Shown here: positions 3,524-12,906 of the stretch, piece after piece | Position numbering within the stretch: the first letter of the stretch is position 1 | How the letters are laid out: each line of letters begins with the position of its first letter | Sequence record: EU863409 | From: Escherichia phage JS10 | Length of the DNA: 64,000 nt | Strand: one strand, 5' to 3' | Program-made: the position numbers and the translations under genes | Notes under the pieces: generated by a model | What the model saw: the letters and a program-made list of their open reading frames with translations, nothing else | Databases searched by the model: none | Told to the model about the DNA's origin: nothing

Positions 3524-5101
3524 ATGGCAAACTTTAATACAATATTAAGTTTTCTTAAGCCATGGGCTAATGAAGACGAAAAAGAATATAAACAACAATT
3601 AAATAACAATTTAGAGTCTGTCACTGCACCTAAGCTTGATGATGGCGCTCGCGAAATTGAAACCCAAGAGCAAAATATTCCTTATAACGCTCTTATGCAA
3701 CAAATGTTTGGTAGTAATGAGCCTGAAGTTAAAAACACCAGGGAACTCATTGATACCTACCGTAATTTGATGAACAACTATGAAGTCGATAACGCAGTTC
3801 AAGAAATTGTGTCTGACGCTATTGTCTACGAGGATGATAAAGAAGTAGTTGCATTAAATTTAGACGGGACAGATTTCAGTCAATCAATTAAAGATAAAAT
3901 TTTGGCTGAATTTAGTGAAGTTTTGAATCTTTTAAATTTCCAACGTAAAGGCACCGACCATTTCCAACGTTGGTATGTAGACTCGAGAATATTCTTTCAT
4001 AAAATTATAAACCCTAAAAAAATGAAAGATGGCGTACAAGAGCTTCGACGCTTAGACCCGCGCCAAGTCCAATATATTCGTGAAATTGTTACACGTATGG
4101 AAGATGGTGTTAAAATTGTAGATGGGTACCGCGAGTTTTTCGTTTACGATACTGGTCATGAAAGTTATTGTGCTGATGGACGCATTTATTCAGCTGGGAC
4201 TAAAGTTAAAATTCCTCGTGCTGCTGTAGTTTATGCACATTCTGGGTTATTGGATTGTTGTGGTAAAAACATCATTGGCTATTTGCAACGTGCTATTAAG
4301 CCTGCAAACCAGCTTAAATTGATGGAAGATGCAATGGTCATCTATCGTATTACCCGTGCTCCTGACCGTCGTGTATTTTATATCGATACAGGAAATATGC
4401 CTTCTCGTAAGGCTGCAGCACAAATGCAACATATCATGAACACGATGAAAAACCGTGTGGTATATGATGCTTCGACCGGTAAAATTAAAAACCAGCAACA
4501 TAATATGTCAATGACCGAAGACTATTGGTTGCAACGTCGAGACGGTAAAGCGGTAACAGAAGTTGATACCATGCCTGGTGCCACAGGTATGAGTGATATG
4601 GATGACGTTCTTTATTTCCGCACAGCACTTTATCGTGCGCTGCGTATCCCAGAGTCACGTATCCCTAGTGAATCCAATTCCGGTGTTATGTTTGATGCTG
4701 GTACGGCTATAACTCGTGATGAGTTGAAATTTGCTAAATGGATTCGACAGCTCCAAAATAAATTTGAAGAAATTTTCTTAGACCCATTAAAAACAAACCT
4801 CATTCTTAAAAAGATTATTACAGAAGATGAGTGGGAAAGAGAAATAAATAATATTAAAGTTACGTTCAACCGTGATAGCTATTTCAGTGAAATGAAAGAT
4901 GCGGAAATCATGGAACGCAGAATCAATATGCTAACGATGGCTGAACCATTTATTGGTAAGTATATTTCACATCAAACGGCTATGAAAGATTTCCTTCAGA
5001 TGACTGACGAAGAAATTAATCAAGAAGCTAAGCAAATTGAAGAAGAGTCTAAAGAGGCTCGTTTCCAAAACCCAGATGAAGAAGAAGAAGAGGATTTCTA
5101 A
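3524..5101 (+). CDS. 20: portal vertex protein gp20
   Basis: 525 aa, position between 19 and 67; acidic C-terminus ending EEEEEDF. Confidence 0.9.
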
Positions 5102-5804: not shown

Positions 5805-6439
5805 TGAAACCTGAATTGCTCATCGAACATTGGGGACAACCAGGTGAAATTATCGATGGGGTTCCGATGTTGGAATCTCATGATGGAAAAGATTCTGGAC
5901 TTGCCCCGGGCCTTTATATAGAAGGCATATTCATGCAAGCCGAAGTGGTTAACCGTAATAAACGCCTTTATCCAAAACCTATTTTGGAAAAAGCTGTTGC
6001 TGATTATATGGCAGAACAGGTTGCTACTAAACAAGCTTTAGGAGAATTAAATCATCCGCCTCGTGCTAACGTCGACCCTATGCAAGCCGCTATTATTATT
6101 GAAGATATGTGGTGGAAAGGTAATGACGTTTATGGACGTGCTCGTATTATTGAAGGCGACCATGGTCCTGGTGATAAACTAGCTGCTAATATTAGAGCCG
6201 GTTGGGTGCCTGGTGTTAGTTCTCGTGGTCTAGGTTCTTTAACCGAAACCAATAAAGGATATAAGCGTGTAAACGAAGGTTATAAATTAACCGTCGGTGT
6301 TGATGCAGTATGGGGTCCATCTGCTCCTGATGCTTATGTAACTCCTAAACAAATTACAGAATCACAAACGGTAGATACCGATACCAGTGCCGATGACGCC
6401 TTTATGGCTCTCGCAGAGGCCATGAAAAAAGCGTTATAA
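5804..6439 (+). CDS. 21: prohead core scaffold protease gp21
   Basis: 211 aa; N-terminus LLIEHWGQPGEIIDGVPMLESHDGKD matches T4 gp21. Confidence 0.9.
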   Translation: MKPELLIEHWGQPGEIIDGVPMLESHDGKDSGLAPGLYIEGIFMQAEVVNRNKRLYPKPILEKAVADYMAEQVATKQALGELNHPPRANVDPMQAAIIIEDMWWKGNDVYGRARIIEGDHGPGDKLAANIRAGWVPGVSSRGLGSLTETNKGYKRVNEGYKLTVGVDAVWGPSAPDAYVTPKQITESQTVDTDTSADDAFMALAEAMKKAL

Positions 6440-6442
6440 ATA
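6435..6442 (+). promoter_or_regulatory. late promoter box TATAAATA for gene 22
   Basis: exact TATAAATA about 28 bp upstream of the gene 22 ATG. Confidence 0.5.
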
Positions 6443-6469
6443 TTATTATCTAAACAACAGGACTACAAA

Positions 6470-7285
6470 ATGCTTAAAGAACAACTGATTGCCGAAGCAC
6501 AGAATATTGATGCTTCCGTTGCTCTTGACAGTATTTTCGAATCAGTTAATATTTCTCCGGAAGCAAAAGAAACTTTCGGCACTGTATTCGAAGCTACCGT
6601 CAAGCAACACGCCGTTAAACTGGCTGAGTCTCATATCGCTAAAATCGCTGAAAAAGCGGAAGAAGAAGTTGAGAAAAATAAAGAAGAAGCTGAAGAAAAA
6701 GCTGATAAGAAAATCCAAGAAGCTGCCGGTCGTTTCCTTGACCACGTCGCTAAAGAATGGATGGCTGAAAACCAGCTGGCTGTTGATAAAGGTATTAAAG
6801 CCGAACTGTTCGAATCCATGTTGATGGGTATGAAAGAACTGTTTGTTGAACACAATGTGGTTGTTCCAGAAGAAGCAGTGGATGTTGTTGCTGAAATGGA
6901 AGAAGAACTCCAAGAGCAGAAAGATGAAACCGCTCGTCTGTTCGAAGAAGTTGGTAAGCGTGACGCATATATTAATTACGTACAGCGTGAAGTTGCGTTG
7001 ACTGAAGCAACTAAAGACCTGACTGAATCTCAGAAAGAAAAAGTTAGTTCTCTGGTAGAAGGCATGGATTATTCCGATGCATTTGGTAAAAAAATTGGCG
7101 CTATCGTTGAAATGGTTAAAGGCCAGACTGACGTTGAAAAACCAATCACCGAAGCCGCTATAAATAAAACTGAAGACGATGCTGCAGCACTGAATTATAT
7201 TTCGGAAGCAGTTGAAGAAAAAGGCACTAAGCCTACCCTGTCCTTCGCGGACCTGTCTGCAATCGCAGCATCTCGAATTTCTTAA
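6470..7285 (+). CDS. 22: prohead core scaffold protein gp22
   Basis: 271 aa, E/K-rich coiled-coil-like composition, position between 21 and 23. Confidence 0.85.
   Translation: MLKEQLIAEAQNIDASVALDSIFESVNISPEAKETFGTVFEATVKQHAVKLAESHIAKIAEKAEEEVEKNKEEAEEKADKKIQEAAGRFLDHVAKEWMAENQLAVDKGIKAELFESMLMGMKELFVEHNVVVPEEAVDVVAEMEEELQEQKDETARLFEEVGKRDAYINYVQREVALTEATKDLTESQKEKVSSLVEGMDYSDAFGKKIGAIVEMVKGQTDVEKPITEAAINKTEDDAAALNYISEAVEEKGTKPTLSFADLSAIAASRIS
7159..7166 (+). promoter_or_regulatory. candidate late promoter box TATAAATA inside the 3' end of gene 22, upstream of gene 23
   Basis: exact TATAAATA about 140 bp upstream of the gene 23 ATG. Confidence 0.3.
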
Positions 7286-7306
7286 TTTAATAAGGTTATA
7301 CAACAC

Positions 7307-8866
7307 ATGAAAAAGAATGCATTAGTTCAAAAATGGTCCGCTCTGCTGGAAAACGAAGCTCTTCCTGAAATCGTTGGTGCTTCTAAACAAGCTATCATCG
7401 CTAAAATTTTCGAAAACCAGGAACAAGACATCCTGACTGCCCCGGAATACCGTGACGAAAAAATCTCTGAAGCATTTGGTTCTTTCCTGACCGAAGCTGA
7501 AATCGGTGGTGACCACGGTTATGATGCTACCAATATCGCAGCTGGCCAGACCTCTGGTGCTGTAACTCAGATTGGGCCGGCAGTAATGGGTATGGTTCGT
7601 CGTGCTATTCCTCATCTGATTGCTTTTGATATTTGTGGTGTTCAGCCTCTGAATAACCCTACCGGCCAGGTATTTGCACTGCGTGCAGTATACGGTAAAG
7701 ACCCTATCGCTGCTGGCGCTAAAGAAGCTTTCCACCCGATGTATGCTCCGAATGCTATGTTCTCTGGTCAGGGCGCTGCTCAGACTTTTGAAGCACTGGC
7801 TGCAGGTAAAGTTCTGGAAGTTGGTAAAATTTATTCTCACTTCTTCGAAGCTACCGGTGCTGCACACTTCCAGGCTGTTGAAGCCGTAACCGTTGATGCT
7901 GCTGCTACTGATGCCGCTAAACTGGATGTTGCCGTAACCGCTCTGTTGGAAGCTGGTCAGCTGGCTGAATTGGCTGAAGGTATGGCTACTTCTATCGCTG
8001 AACTTCAGGAAGGCTTTAACGGTTCTCAGGATAACCCGTGGAACGAAATGGGCTTCCGTATCGATAAACAAGTTATCGAAGCTAAATCCCGTCAGCTGAA
8101 AGCAAGCTACTCCATCGAACTGGCACAGGACCTTCGTGCAGTACACGGTATGGATGCAGATGCTGAACTGTCCGGTATCCTTGCTACCGAAATTATGCTC
8201 GAAATCAACCGTGAAGTTATCGATTGGATTAACTACTCTGCACAGGTTGGTAAATCTGGTATGACCAACACCGTTGGCGCTAAAGCTGGTGTGTTTGACT
8301 TCCAGGACCCGATTGATATCCGTGGTGCTCGTTGGGCCGGTGAGAGCTTTAAAGCCCTTCTGTTCCAGATTGATAAAGAAGCAGCCGAAATCGCTCGTCA
8401 GACCGGTCGTGGTGCTGGTAACTTCATCATCGCTTCCCGTAACGTAGTTAACGTACTGGCTGCAGTTGATACTTCTGTAAGTTATGCAGCTCAAGGTCTG
8501 GGTCAAGGTTTCAACGTTGACACCACTAAAGCAGTATTTGCCGGTGTTCTTGGTGGTAAATATCGCGTTTACATCGACCAGTATGCCCGTGCTGATTACT
8601 TCACCATCGGTTATAAAGGTTCCAACGAAATGGACGCAGGTATCTACTACGCTCCTTACGTTGCACTTACCCCACTGCGCGGTTCCGATCCGAAGAACTT
8701 CCAGCCGGTAATGGGCTTCAAAACTCGTTACGGTATCGGTATTAACCCGTTCGCTGACCCGTCTGCACAGGCTCCTACCAAACGTATTCAGAGCGGTATG
8801 CCTGACATCGTTAACAGCCTCGGTCTGAATGGTTACTTCCGTCGCGTTTATGTTAAAGGTATCTAA
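7307..8866 (+). CDS. 23: major capsid protein gp23
   Basis: 519 aa; long stretches match T4 gp23 as recalled (QAIIAKIFENQE, GSFLTEAEIGGDHGY, YAPYVALTPLRGSDPKNFQPVMGFKTRYGIGINPFA, YFRRVYVKGI). Confidence 0.97.
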   Translation: MKKNALVQKWSALLENEALPEIVGASKQAIIAKIFENQEQDILTAPEYRDEKISEAFGSFLTEAEIGGDHGYDATNIAAGQTSGAVTQIGPAVMGMVRRAIPHLIAFDICGVQPLNNPTGQVFALRAVYGKDPIAAGAKEAFHPMYAPNAMFSGQGAAQTFEALAAGKVLEVGKIYSHFFEATGAAHFQAVEAVTVDAAATDAAKLDVAVTALLEAGQLAELAEGMATSIAELQEGFNGSQDNPWNEMGFRIDKQVIEAKSRQLKASYSIELAQDLRAVHGMDADAELSGILATEIMLEINREVIDWINYSAQVGKSGMTNTVGAKAGVFDFQDPIDIRGARWAGESFKALLFQIDKEAAEIARQTGRGAGNFIIASRNVVNVLAAVDTSVSYAAQGLGQGFNVDTTKAVFAGVLGGKYRVYIDQYARADYFTIGYKGSNEMDAGIYYAPYVALTPLRGSDPKNFQPVMGFKTRYGIGINPFADPSAQAPTKRIQSGMPDIVNSLGLNGYFRRVYVKGI

Positions 8867-8880
8867 TACCTAACCTTATT

Positions 8881-8902
8881 ATGGGAGACTTCGGTCTCCC
8901 AT
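8881..8902. terminator. hairpin GGGAGAC-TTCG-GTCTCCC between gene 23 and a convergent small ORF
   Basis: perfect 7-9 bp GC-rich stem, TTCG loop, T-rich tract after it on the plus strand. Confidence 0.6.
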
Positions 8903-8915
8903 TCTTGTTTCTGTA

Positions 8916-9182
8916 CTATGCAATCTTAACTCGACGGTTGATGATATCACGGAAGTCAATACGATTTTCTTGGATTTTCAGCCAGTTACCAGATTTGTCT
9001 TTGGTGTGGGTAGAGTATTCACCGTTCCACCAGAAGTCGGTTTCATAAGCCAGAGCTTCGTATTTCTTAACCAATGCATTAACTGCATTACCGTTAGGAT
9101 TGGTACCAAATTTTTCTACCAGAGCTTTGATGTCTTTGTCAAGGTTAGAAAGCGTGGTACGGATAAAGTTTAATTTGTTCAT
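8916..9182 (-). CDS. hypothetical 88-aa early protein in the 23/24 intergenic slot
   Basis: ORF 8916..9197; internal ATG at 9182 preceded by AGGAGA RBS and an early-promoter cassette. Confidence 0.5.
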   Translation of the reverse strand: MNKLNFIRTTLSNLDKDIKALVEKFGTNPNGNAVNALVKKYEALAYETDFWWNGEYSTHTKDKSGNWLKIQENRIDFRDIINRRVKIA

Positions 9183-9192
9183 TTTTAATCTC

Positions 9193-9241
9193 CTCATGTT
9201 TTGATAGGTCTATAGTAACACGTGGGAACCTTGCTGTAAAC
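9193..9241 (-). promoter_or_regulatory. early promoter cassette copy 1 (GTTTACA-N17-TACTATAGACCTATCAA...ATGAGGAG)
   Basis: read on the minus strand; drives the 88-aa ORF. Confidence 0.55.
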
Positions 9242-9247
9242 AACTTT

Positions 9248-9255
9248 TATAAATA
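9248..9255 (+). promoter_or_regulatory. late promoter box TATAAATA for gene 24
   Basis: exact TATAAATA about 29 bp upstream of the gene 24 ATG. Confidence 0.55.
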
Positions 9256-9283
9256 AACATATACCCTCAATAAGGAAAGCGCA

Positions 9284-10567
9284 ATGGCAAAGATTAACGA
9301 ATTACTGCGCGAGTCAACAACTACTACCAGCAACTCATTGGGTCGCCCTAATCTTGTTGCTTTGACCCGTGCTACCACTAAACTAATTTATCGCGATATC
9401 ATCGCTGAACAACGTACTAGTCAGCCTATTGCTGCATTGTATGGTGTCAAATATCTTACCCCTGATAATGAATTCAGTTTCCAAACTGGTGCTGTTTATG
9501 GTGGTGAAGTTGGTTCTAAAGACCGTGAAACTATCCCGGAACTCACAGATAAAGCCCAGGCGATTGCCAAGGGTGACTACTTTAAGTATCAGAATGTGGT
9601 TTATAAGGCTCTTCAAGCAAGCCCACTCGCATCCACTAGCGCTACAGGATTGGCCGATGCTCTTCAAGAAGGTTTGGTGTCATTAACATGTCGTCTGGTT
9701 CCTGATGCAGCCCATACCACTAAATTCGAAGCGAGTAATGTAGAAATCTCTGATGCTGTATTCCAGGTTAATAAATGGAATGCTCCTGTTAAGACCCGTA
9801 AATTGAAGACTGCTTTGACTGTAGAATTGGCACAGGATATGGAATCAAATGGCTTCGACGCCCCTGCATTCTTAGAAGACCTCCTGGCTACAGTAATGGC
9901 AGATGAAATTAATAAAGACGTTCTGCAATCTCTGATAACCGTATCTAAACGCTATAAAGTTACCGGTGTATCTGATAATGGCATCATCGATTTGACTTAT
10001 GATAGTGCTCCGGAATCTGCCCGTAAACTTTATGAAATTGTCTGTGAGATGAATTCTGAAATCCAGAAAACTACTTCTTATTCTGGTACGTTTGTTGTGG
10101 CTTCAAGTCGTGTGGCTGCAATGCTTGCAGGTTCTGGCTGGTTAAAACATAGACCTGAAGATAATAATTGGCTCCCGGAAACTGCCTATGGTTATTTGTT
10201 GAATGGATTACCACTGTTCTGTGACGTTAACAGCCCATTGGATTATGTTATCGTAGGTGTTAAAGAGAACTATGGTGGTAATGAAGTTGTCGGTTCTATT
10301 TTCTATGCCCCATATACAGAAGGCCTGGATTTAGACGACCCAGAACACGTTGGTGCTTATAAGGTTATTGTCGACCCGGATTCATTACAGCCTTCTATTT
10401 CTCTGATGGTTCGTTATGCACTTTCGGCTAACCCATACACCGTAGCTAAAGACGACAAAGAAGCTCGTATTATCGACGCAACCAATATGGATTTAATGGC
10501 GGGCCAGAGTAATATGTCTTATCTGCTTGGTGTTAAACTTCCAGCAATTATTTACGAGGCTGATTAA
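9284..10567 (+). CDS. 24: capsid vertex protein gp24 (copy 1)
   Basis: 427 aa (same length as T4 gp24); gp23-like fold signatures (ELAQD, YYAPY); position after 23. Confidence 0.9.
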   Translation: MAKINELLRESTTTTSNSLGRPNLVALTRATTKLIYRDIIAEQRTSQPIAALYGVKYLTPDNEFSFQTGAVYGGEVGSKDRETIPELTDKAQAIAKGDYFKYQNVVYKALQASPLASTSATGLADALQEGLVSLTCRLVPDAAHTTKFEASNVEISDAVFQVNKWNAPVKTRKLKTALTVELAQDMESNGFDAPAFLEDLLATVMADEINKDVLQSLITVSKRYKVTGVSDNGIIDLTYDSAPESARKLYEIVCEMNSEIQKTTSYSGTFVVASSRVAAMLAGSGWLKHRPEDNNWLPETAYGYLLNGLPLFCDVNSPLDYVIVGVKENYGGNEVVGSIFYAPYTEGLDLDDPEHVGAYKVIVDPDSLQPSISLMVRYALSANPYTVAKDDKEARIIDATNMDLMAGQSNMSYLLGVKLPAIIYEAD

Positions 10568-11850
10568 TGTCTAAGATTATAGACCTAATTAAAGAATCCA
10601 CATTGACGGCTGCCAACTCGGTTGGCCGTCCTGCTCTTCTTTCATACACCCAAGCAACTAATAAACGAATCTTTAAAGCCCTAGTTGCTGAACAAAAAAC
10701 AAGCCAACCTGTTGCCGCTCTGTACGGGGTTCGTGTACTTAATCCTGACGACAAAATGACTTATCTTGGTGGCGCTACATTTGCAGGCCAGATTGGTATG
10801 TCGGAACGTGAAAATATTCCTGAATTTACCGATTCGTCTACAGCTTATGCAGCCGGCGATATGTTCCAGTTTGAAAGTGTAGTGTTTAAAGTTCTAGAAG
10901 CATCTCCTTTCGCCGGAACCACAGAAACCGACCTCGGTGAAGTTATTTCTGAAGCAGTGGCCGCTGGGCATATTCGTATGGTATCAGATGCTGCTATTAC
11001 TTCTAAATTTGAACAAGGCCACCCTGAAATTGCTGAAGCAGGCTTCCGTATTGACAAATGGCAATCTGAAGTTAAATCACGTAAACTGAAAACTTCATTG
11101 ACAGTCGAATTGGCCCAAGACCTAGAATCAAACGGGTTTAATGCTCCTAATTTCGTTGAAAATCTGCTAGGCATTCAAATGGCAGAAGAAATTAATAAGG
11201 ACGTATTACAGTCATTAATTACGGTGAGTTCTCGTTTTAAAGTCCAAGGTGTTTCTGAAAAGGGCGTATTAGACCTTACCAACCCACGTTACGATAATGC
11301 CCAGGACCGTGCTCGTACATTATATTATTACATGTGTGAGATGAACTCTGCCGTCCAACGTCAAACTTCTTTCGCCGGGACTTATGCAGTAGCTAGTTCT
11401 CGTTGTGCTGCTATTCTCGCCGCTTCCGGTTGGGTTGAGAAAAAGGAAGACCAAGACGAATTGGCTTATGGTGTATTAAAGAATGGTCTGCCTCTTTATG
11501 CCGATATGAATAGTCCATGTGATTATGTTATTGTTGGTGTAAATGCTCAGATGGGTGAAGGACAGACGGTCGCATCTTTATATTATGCGCCTTATACGGA
11601 AGGTTTGGATGTGGTTGATGAAGAAGGTGATACTTCAGTAGGTGAATTTAAGGTTATTGTTGACCCAGAAAGCTTACAACCTACAGTAGCATTGCTTGCT
11701 CGTTATGCATTGACTGCAAACCCTTATACCGTCGCTAAGGACGATAAAGAAGCCCGCATTATTGATGGCTCTGATATGGACAAAATGGCTAACCAAAGCC
11801 AGTTGAGTTCTTATCTTGGTGTAAAACTTCCTCCATTGGATAAAAACTAA
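10567..11850 (+). CDS. 24: capsid vertex protein gp24 paralogue (copy 2)
   Basis: 427 aa, collinear with copy 1 (TVELAQDLESNGF, DVLQSLITVS, YTVAKDDKEARIID); start overlaps copy 1 stop (TAATG). Confidence 0.85.
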   Translation: MSKIIDLIKESTLTAANSVGRPALLSYTQATNKRIFKALVAEQKTSQPVAALYGVRVLNPDDKMTYLGGATFAGQIGMSERENIPEFTDSSTAYAAGDMFQFESVVFKVLEASPFAGTTETDLGEVISEAVAAGHIRMVSDAAITSKFEQGHPEIAEAGFRIDKWQSEVKSRKLKTSLTVELAQDLESNGFNAPNFVENLLGIQMAEEINKDVLQSLITVSSRFKVQGVSEKGVLDLTNPRYDNAQDRARTLYYYMCEMNSAVQRQTSFAGTYAVASSRCAAILAASGWVEKKEDQDELAYGVLKNGLPLYADMNSPCDYVIVGVNAQMGEGQTVASLYYAPYTEGLDVVDEEGDTSVGEFKVIVDPESLQPTVALLARYALTANPYTVAKDDKEARIIDGSDMDKMANQSQLSSYLGVKLPPLDKN

Positions 11851-11872
11851 AAAGGGACCTCACGGTCCCTTT
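11851..11872. terminator. bidirectional hairpin AAAGGGACC-TCAC-GGTCCCTTT between convergent gene 24 copy 2 and rnlB
   Basis: perfect 9-bp stem, flanked by A/T runs on both strands. Confidence 0.6.
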
Positions 11873-11877
11873 ACTGT

Positions 11878-12906
11878 TTATTTGGATACTAGTTCAATCC
11901 ATACAGCTCGTAGCGTATCTTTAACGCACTCAACGAGCTGCTTTTTAACTTCAACAGGGTTTTCTGCATCGGTTAATTCTAATTCTTCACGGGCTGCCTC
12001 TTCCAAAATATCTTGGACCGTCAAGCCCATTACCTTTCCAAAATCTTTAGGTGTTACTTCACCAATCTTACTGATAACGTTATTGATACGGTTAACTGTC
12101 ACATAATCTGTGAATTGCCACATCAAGTCCATATCGTCTTGGGACAATACTACTGCAGCCTTAATAGGCTTATCAGATTTTTTCTTCTCGCTGAATTTAG
12201 AGTTCTTACATTTAATCGCTACACGATTTCCATTAGGAAGCCAGATTGGAACATCAGGTTTCAGTACAAAGCCTTCAGCCGTAAATACTTTACCTTCGAC
12301 CTTAGGAATAAAATCGGTTGAGTTAGCAATGGTTAAACCTGCATTATCCACTGCAAAATTGTAATCTGGGATAACAGAATCAAAATCATTCGGCAGTTTA
12401 ATAAGGTCTTCAAAGCTACCTGTGGCTAAGCACGGAGCAACCTTAAACTTATGGATAATACAGAAAGCTTCCATAAGGGTATCAGTTAAAACGGATTCGG
12501 TGCCATCTTCTTTAGTAACACGGATATCAAATACATAAAAGTCTTTATCGCCGTAATCCACATTCTTCTGGATACCCGTACCAGCGAACTCGCCATAAAT
12601 TTGGTACGACTGATAATTAATAGATTCGATTAGATGTTGAACAGATTTAATAGAATCAGCATAGTTCTTAAGTACAATTTCATAGCCATAGAAATCTTCG
12701 GCCGGGAGAATTGGGCCAGTGCGCTTGGCGCACGTGACTGCGTCACGTTCTATGATTAAACTAAAGTTGGTTCCATGAATCTTCTCACGTGCTACCCATT
12801 CACCACCAGTCAAACCATGGGTACGGAGTTTTTCGATAAACTTACTGTTGTAATGGTTTTCCAGACTGCTATATTTCTTGAACATATTATTTGCTTCCAT
12901 AATCAA
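11878..12906 (-). CDS. rnlB: RNA ligase 2 (RnlB)
   Basis: 342 aa; nucleotidyltransferase motif I EKIHGTN; position between 24 and hoc as in T4. Confidence 0.85.

Follow-up and report, generated by a model that had tools for sequence, protein, structure and literature searches.

In phage T4 the slot between genes 23 and 24 is occupied by segD, as the preliminary description of this DNA correctly stated. In the window (the whole stretch that was analysed, 64,000 nucleotides from Escherichia phage JS10, sequence record EU863409) the slot holds a short minus-strand open reading frame (ORF) of 88 aa, which had been described as an early gene standing in place of the endonuclease and running antisense toward the major capsid gene. 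The question raised by this locus is whether the ORF is a true gene and, if it is, whether it acts through its RNA, as part of a homing element, or through a protein of its own.

A protein-coding gene between genes 23 and 24

The region shares 99% identity with Escherichia phage Esco_phi_B-01 and about 94% with JS98, which places the phage in Dhakavirus, among the JS98-like T-even phages. The elements of the locus are arranged as follows.

7307-8866, plus strand: gene 23 (major capsid)
8881-8902, folding on both strands: hairpin ATGGGAGAC-TTCG-GTCTCCCAT, with a 9-bp stem and a TTCG loop
8916-9182, minus strand: the 88-aa ORF between gene 23 and gene 24a (stop codon at 8916-8918)
9190-9195, minus strand: Shine-Dalgarno sequence GAGGAG, 7 nt 5' of the ATG at 9182 (read directly)
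9201-9211, minus strand: conserved leader AGACCTATCAA, directly 3' of the -10 element
9212-9241, minus strand: T4-type early promoter GTTTAC-N15-TGT-TACTAT (exact match)
9248-9255, plus strand: late promoter TATAAATA of gene 24a (read directly)
9284-10567, plus strand: gene 24a (vertex)
10567-11850, plus strand: second gene 24 paralogue

The minus-strand frame is free of stops over 8916-9197, equivalent to 93 aa, and translation from the conserved start, the ATG at 9182, yields a product of 88 aa (MNKLNF...VKIA). An alternative ATG at 9197 overlaps the GAGGAG Shine-Dalgarno sequence and is absent from TU01. The ORF ends 14 nt short of the hairpin and overlaps the coding sequence of neither gene 23 nor gene 24. 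Its orientation, which had been termed antisense, is opposite to that of its neighbours, but there is no overlap with either of them.

An ORF of this length is not unusual: mechanical translation of the window yields 119 ORFs of at least 80 aa, and such numbers are what would speak for a chance ORF in an intergenic spacer. The credibility of this ORF comes solely from conservation and selection. Pairwise Nei-Gojobori comparisons with JS98, G28, mobillu and IME08 give dN/dS values of 0.03-0.10, and pairs of distant homologues give 0.16-0.31. A tblastn search matches 129 phage records, and in 128 of these the match spans at least 80% of the query. The match to the phrog_6003 HMM is full-length (E 2.2e-49, residues 1-88 on positions 1-88 of the 90 in the profile). 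The AlphaFold2 model, computed from an alignment of 19 sequences, has a pLDDT of 93.5 and consists of two helices (residues 3-25 and 31-48), a beta hairpin (52-71) and a closing helix (77-87); the BFVD model of a 41%-identical homologue superposes on it with a TM-score of 0.90. Purifying selection, the full-length PHROG match, the confidently predicted fold and the conserved promoter and Shine-Dalgarno sequence together refute a chance origin, to which we would give a negligible probability. The 88-aa ORF is a true, selected, protein-coding gene, as the preliminary description had supposed.

The gene is also already known. The identical protein has been deposited for JS10 as EpJS10_0170 (ACL78396.1, 'hypothetical protein'), JS98 orf173 (YP_001595302) and VR7ORF190c are homologues within phrog_6003, and every one of the named cluster members listed is called 'hypothetical' or 'uncharacterized'. 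More than 100 coliphage genomes carry the gene as a hypothetical protein, so that its recognition here is correct but ordinary.

Two damaged copies were seen. That of 310Ecol104PP (P0007, OR062946.1 88911-89255) leaves the frame after residue 43 and encodes a 64-aa product, and that of mogra (P0022) is a 51-aa C-terminal fragment of a Mosigvirus-type protein. The frameshifted and the split copy may represent loss of the gene, or errors of sequencing or annotation.

The two gene 24 paralogues of the window are in tandem, 57% identical, with a one-base overlap at their junction. They are named 24a and 24b in IME08 and are both called gene 24 in JS98; a tandem gene 24 is also found in VR7 and in two metagenomic T-even contigs, and a single copy is present in TU01, mobillu, G28 and T4. 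A connection between the presence of the ORF and the gene 24 duplication was considered and rejected, TU01, mobillu and G28 having the ORF and one gene 24.

The early promoter, the late promoter and the gene 23 hairpin

The early-promoter cassette that had been reported upstream of the ORF was recovered as an exact T4-type pattern. It comprises a -35 element (GTTTAC, 9241-9236), an 18-nt spacer ending in TGT, which provides an extended -10, and a -10 element (TACTAT, 9217-9212). Read as a sigma-70 promoter, the same site is TTTACA-17-TACTAT with the TG (9240-9212, minus strand). A generic sigma-70 scan over 6400-12000 returned 11 sites against 9.8 expected and is thus no better than chance; the pattern GTTTAC-N15-TGN-TANNAT occurs at five sites in the window, all of them on the minus strand, against 0.54 expected. 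The alignment shows the promoter to be conserved in JS98, IME08, mobillu, TU01, VR7 and T4, that is, in four genera. It fits TTTACW-N17-TAYWAT, the consensus of the early promoters of PeSL modules in T4-type phages (Comeau et al. 2014, PMC4122927). The GenBank record of SA35RD annotates the homologous site as a T4-like early promoter, together with the same layout of early promoter, late promoter and terminator.

The conserved leader follows the -10 element directly, and we infer a transcription start near 9205. Matches to TACTATAGACCTATCAA are also found at 35943-35927 and 51222-51206, with related forms at other early promoter sites. A scripted search of the window recovered nine minus-strand sites that share promoter and leader (TACTAT-AGaCCTATCAA...ATGAGGAG...ATG), the complete form being GTTTAC-N17/18-TACTAT-AGaCCTATCAAc...ATGAGGAG...ATG; the G of the -35 element lies at 9241, 13639, 27904, 39236, 42968, 50954, 51245, 52327 and 55596. 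Since promoter and leader recur together at nine sites, the cassette is a real, repeated unit, and by its sequence a standardised early expression cassette recurs through the window. Expression of the ORF would accordingly be expected early in infection, to judge from its promoter type. The GGAG within the Shine-Dalgarno sequence is the motif that is cut by T4 RegB in early mRNAs.

On the other strand, the late promoter of gene 24a occupies AT-rich sequence immediately upstream of the early -35 element, so that the two promoters diverge back to back. As had been noted earlier, the two signals meet: the late promoter at 9248-9255 abuts the early promoter and overlaps its -35/UP region. The sequence TATTTAT(A) is conserved in seven of seven aligned phages, T4 being one base shorter in the adjoining A-run.

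The hairpin adjoining gene 23 was proposed to be a bidirectional terminator. This is half true, because the T-rich tail is present only on the plus strand (8903-8912). The hairpin itself has a predicted energy of -15 to -18 kcal/mol (z -3.4/-4.4) and folds equally well on the minus strand, where it is followed by AUAAUAAGGUUAGG and has no U-tract; a bidirectional terminator would carry a U-tract on both strands, and the minus-strand tail is AUAAUAAGG. The hairpin adjoins gene 23 whether or not the slot is filled, with stem-preserving changes between phages. Since it is kept in the empty slot of T2 and has its TTCG loop and T-tail on the plus strand, its primary role is that of an intrinsic terminator for gene 23. 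For the ORF transcript, on the minus strand, it is likely to serve as the 3' end or as a stabiliser. The JS98 hairpin resembles that of the window in having a T-tract in the gene 23 direction only. In VR7 the hairpin next to gene 23 has A-runs and T-runs on both sides, including a T-run in the ORF direction, and would therefore terminate the ORF transcript too. Elsewhere in the window, a hairpin with T-runs on both strands lies at 11851-11872, between gene 24b and a convergent RNA ligase gene; it scores on both strands and, unlike the gene 23 hairpin, is a genuine two-way terminator.

These signals bear on the suggestion that the early transcript regulates the capsid genes, either by reading through into the 3' end of gene 23 as an antisense RNA or by interfering with the late promoter of gene 24, so that capsid expression is tuned and the ORF is secondary. 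Because the minus strand has no U-tract after the hairpin, it is physically plausible that transcription continues into gene 23 in antisense, and the overlap of the early -35/UP region with the late promoter would provide a point of interference. The remaining observations argue against such a role. Synonymous change in the ORF is far above non-synonymous change, and the constraint is therefore on the protein. The cassette is missing from T2 and from many other T-even phages that retain genes 23 and 24, including sampled Klebsiella phages, homologues of the ORF in other phage groups do not lie beside capsid genes, and the VR7 hairpin bears its T-run in the very direction in which read-through would have to occur. 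No Rfam family was matched within 8700-9400. Early and late transcription are, moreover, separated in time in T4, and the ORF transcript and that of gene 23 could have no sequence in common other than the terminator hairpin. We regard the proposed antisense role as very unlikely and unsupported; antisense read-through into gene 23 would be a side effect and not a selected function.

Variation of the slot and its relation to segD

A comparison of the slot across related phages had been recommended. The survey was sampled from 1472 records that match the flanks, and individual records were read in addition. The ORF is present in about 129 of the approximately 1470 flank-matching records, and four states of the slot between genes 23 and 24 can be distinguished:

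Empty: T2 (an 83-bp spacer with only the hairpin and TATAAATA, the early promoter being absent); also several Tequatrovirus and Klebsiella phages among those sampled
ORF only: JS98, VR7, TU01, SA35RD, G28, metagenomic T-even contigs, and the window
ORF and segD: IME08, mobillu
segD only: T4, Gravdalen

The ORF has the same position and orientation in Dhakavirus, Gaprivervirus, Mosigvirus and some Tequatrovirus. For the capsid and head module the gene is dispensable, and its presence varies among T-even phages.

Comparison of close relatives reveals how the slot changes. Between the two Mosigvirus phages mobillu and TU01, identity is 98-100% through genes 23 and 24 and drops to 54-62% within the ORF, while the mobillu ORF is 97% identical to that of the window and the mobillu stretch of ORF and segD is 90-96% identical to that of IME08. 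The left breakpoint between mobillu and TU01 is located in the segment that separates the -10 element from the Shine-Dalgarno sequence. G28 is a similar case: away from the slot its genes 23 and 24 match those of T4 at 95-100% identity, whereas across the intergenic cassette it matches JS98 at 95-99%. Phages of different genera exchange the cassette as a module, either on its own or with segD downstream on its promoter. The Dhakavirus-type cassette, with or without segD, was seen in Mosigvirus and Tequatrovirus backbones, the swaps being sharp.

Such exchanges recall the PeSL modules, promoter-early stem-loop cassettes which flank exchangeable ORFans of T4-type phages (PMC2839356; PMC4122927) and whose crossovers have been mapped to positions like that of the mobillu/TU01 breakpoint (Arbiol et al. 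2010, PMC2839356). The ORF unit likewise combines a strong sigma-70-type early promoter with a stem-loop terminator, and its non-essential ORFan has been inserted, deleted or replaced between close relatives (mobillu/TU01, G28/T4), with a crossover in the regulatory region. However, this locus does not have the composite motif that defines a PeSL: upstream of the promoter are the late promoter and leader of gene 24, with no stem-loop, and the only stem-loop lies on the 3' side of the ORF and is the pre-existing terminator of gene 23. The cassette also lies within the conserved head module and not in a hyperplastic region, and the G28 exchange has its boundaries not in PeSLs but within or close to the ends of genes 23 and 24.

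A second comparison, by analogy only, is with the morons of lambdoid phages, which are autonomous units of promoter, gene and terminator inserted between conserved genes. The ORF unit too is an independent unit between two conserved late genes, with a presence/absence polymorphism; morons, in contrast, are expressed from the repressed prophage, whereas the ORF is an early lytic gene of a virulent phage.

The slot survey also alters the view of the ORF as the counterpart of segD. The T4 gene shares with the ORF its slot, its orientation and a homologous upstream promoter region, but the proteins are unrelated: that of segD has 223 aa and is a free-standing homing endonuclease of the GIY-YIG type, and the 88-aa protein has no GIY-YIG match. 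Because IME08 and mobillu carry both genes, the ORF is not an alternative occupant to segD, and that part of the preliminary description falls. In these two phages the ATG of segD lies 3 nt past the ORF stop, only the last ORF codons are altered, and there is no separate promoter between the two genes; segD sits behind the ORF, within the ORF transcription unit. T4, which lacks the ORF, retains ATTTAC-N15-TGA-TATTAT directly upstream of segD, aligned with 9212-9240 of the window. In sigma-70 terms this site is TTTACA-17-TATTAT with the TG (3754-3782 of the T4 NC_000866 extract, minus strand), with 10 of 12 matches. T4 thus appears, from this alignment, to have lost the ORF, leaving segD on the ORF promoter. 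The consensus match and the homology suggest that segD took over an early transcription unit that was already in place, and that the site is a candidate segD promoter in T4. In a review of 2010 no segD-specific promoter could be identified (PMC2988022).

The close association of the two genes could instead mean that the ORF belongs to the segD homing element or travels with it, being spread by the endonuclease gene, needed for it, or providing it with an insertion or expression site. The 3-nt spacing in IME08 and mobillu, where segD has no promoter of its own and only the end of the ORF is changed, would fit this reading, as would the joint entry of ORF and segD into the Mosigvirus background and the presence of the same promoter directly upstream of segD in T4. 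It is difficult to reconcile, however, with JS98, G28, VR7, TU01 and the window, which have the ORF in a slot without segD, with T4 and Gravdalen, which have segD without the ORF, and with the occurrence of the family in another subfamily, where no endonuclease is annotated nearby. The relation looks one-way, with segD exploiting the ORF transcription unit, and we consider a role of the ORF as part or passenger of the homing element unlikely.

The 88-aa protein: relatives and probable role

The protein is small and basic (pI 9.5), and a basic pI of 9.5-9.8 was obtained for 11 of 11 homologues computed, being kept down to 28-32% identity. Its size and charge, the position of its gene between genes 23 and 24, and an L-V-E motif at residues 21-23 raise the possibility of a head-related function, either as an internal protein that enters the head along with the DNA, like those of T4, or as an assembly factor. 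T4 internal proteins carry an N-terminal capsid-targeting sequence that ends in a conserved L/I-x-E cleavage site, and show late or dual expression. For the ORF, by contrast, only an early-type promoter was found, and the gene is oriented opposite to the late head operon; the LxE motif is not conserved (LVN in VR7, LVD in the homologue P0019, LNA in ABPH49); and residues 3-25 form an integral helix of the predicted fold. The gene is, in addition, missing from T2 and T4. Assignment to the T4 internal proteins of the IPI-III type was rejected on the unconserved LVE at 21-23, the structural helix at the N-terminus and the finding of an early-type promoter only, and a head function of any kind seems highly improbable.

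Profile searches of the protein, which had been proposed earlier, matched phrog_6003 only and returned nothing functionally informative. None of 19 family members has a Pfam or NCBIfam match at E < 0.001, in agreement with the earlier remark that GIY-YIG and HNH signatures are lacking: neither domain was found with these profiles in the 19 members. The best Pfam hit is DUF5380 (E 0.075-0.12), far under its cut-off. PADLOC gave a single marginal JAB match, in one family member, the best hits in a sequence search of the PDB were de novo helical bundles (E 0.12), and BFVD contained no informative relative. A HMMER profile search of 1.84 billion representative proteins yielded nine matches, all of which are family members or artefacts; a chimeric fragment (P0023) and two spurious repeat proteins (P0025 and P0026) were set aside. 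The JGI label 'curcumin reductase' on P0019 is likewise spurious, the E-value against that model being 0.047. A literature search found nothing naming orf173, phrog_6003 or their accession numbers.

The distribution of the family is narrower than that of its flanks. Nearly every carrier is an Escherichia or Shigella phage, whereas hundreds of phages of Klebsiella, Enterobacter and Aeromonas match in the flanks. Homologues with 38-41% identity occur in Vequintavirinae-like phages, which belong to another subfamily, far from capsid genes (ABPH49, 2501-2767 of locus L007; 4001-4264 of locus L014). There they lie inside runs of small hypothetical ORFs on the same strand.

Taken with the slot variation, these properties make it probable that the feature is an early accessory gene which forms a unit of its own, can be exchanged and encodes a small, basic and presumably host-directed protein. 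The unit of approximately 340 bp would consist of an early promoter, the standard GAGGAG leader, the 88-codon gene and a 3' end at the gene 23 hairpin, inserted between the terminator of gene 23 and the late promoter of gene 24. Host RNA polymerase would transcribe it right after infection, from near 9205, into an RNA of about 325 nt that is ended or stabilised at the hairpin, and expression would be brief. The functional product would be the protein, small, basic, well folded and of a family confined to large coliphages, which most likely binds a component of the host within minutes of the start of infection, in host take-over or in counter-defence.

A host-directed role is the most likely one by analogy with other early, non-essential, laterally mobile genes of T-even phages and given the restriction of the family to coliphages. 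The near-confinement of carriers to Escherichia and Shigella phages, the location of the Vequintavirinae-like relatives in runs of small ORFs and the conserved basic pI are compatible with it. Against this reading, no homologue with an assigned role emerged from the profile, structure or literature searches, and the conserved basic charge fits binding to nucleic acid or to phage components equally well.

It is tempting to combine the two strands of the analysis, such that the ORF defines a structurally new, coliphage-restricted family of early host-directed effectors and its cassette is at the same time an unrecognised expression signal of segD, which would share a transcript with the ORF ahead of it in IME08 and mobillu and, after loss of the ORF, would be expressed straight from the cassette promoter in T4. 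We put this forward as a possibility that is, as a whole, doubtful. If the cassette does serve as the segD signal, it would answer the puzzle of the missing promoter in the 2010 review (PMC2988022).

The observation that began this work is thus confirmed and its first interpretation partly supported, and the feature itself is an ordinary one. The slot illustrates how T-even phages exchange small accessory units with sharp boundaries inside a conserved structural module; the four-state picture, the sharp module exchanges and the candidate segD promoter are by-products of the comparison. The practical value is modest, the ORFan protein being a reasonable candidate for early-gene screens against E. 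coli defence systems or host targets.

Among the distant relatives, the ABPH49 record is titled as an Acinetobacter phage, and the GC content of its homologue gene is about 50%.
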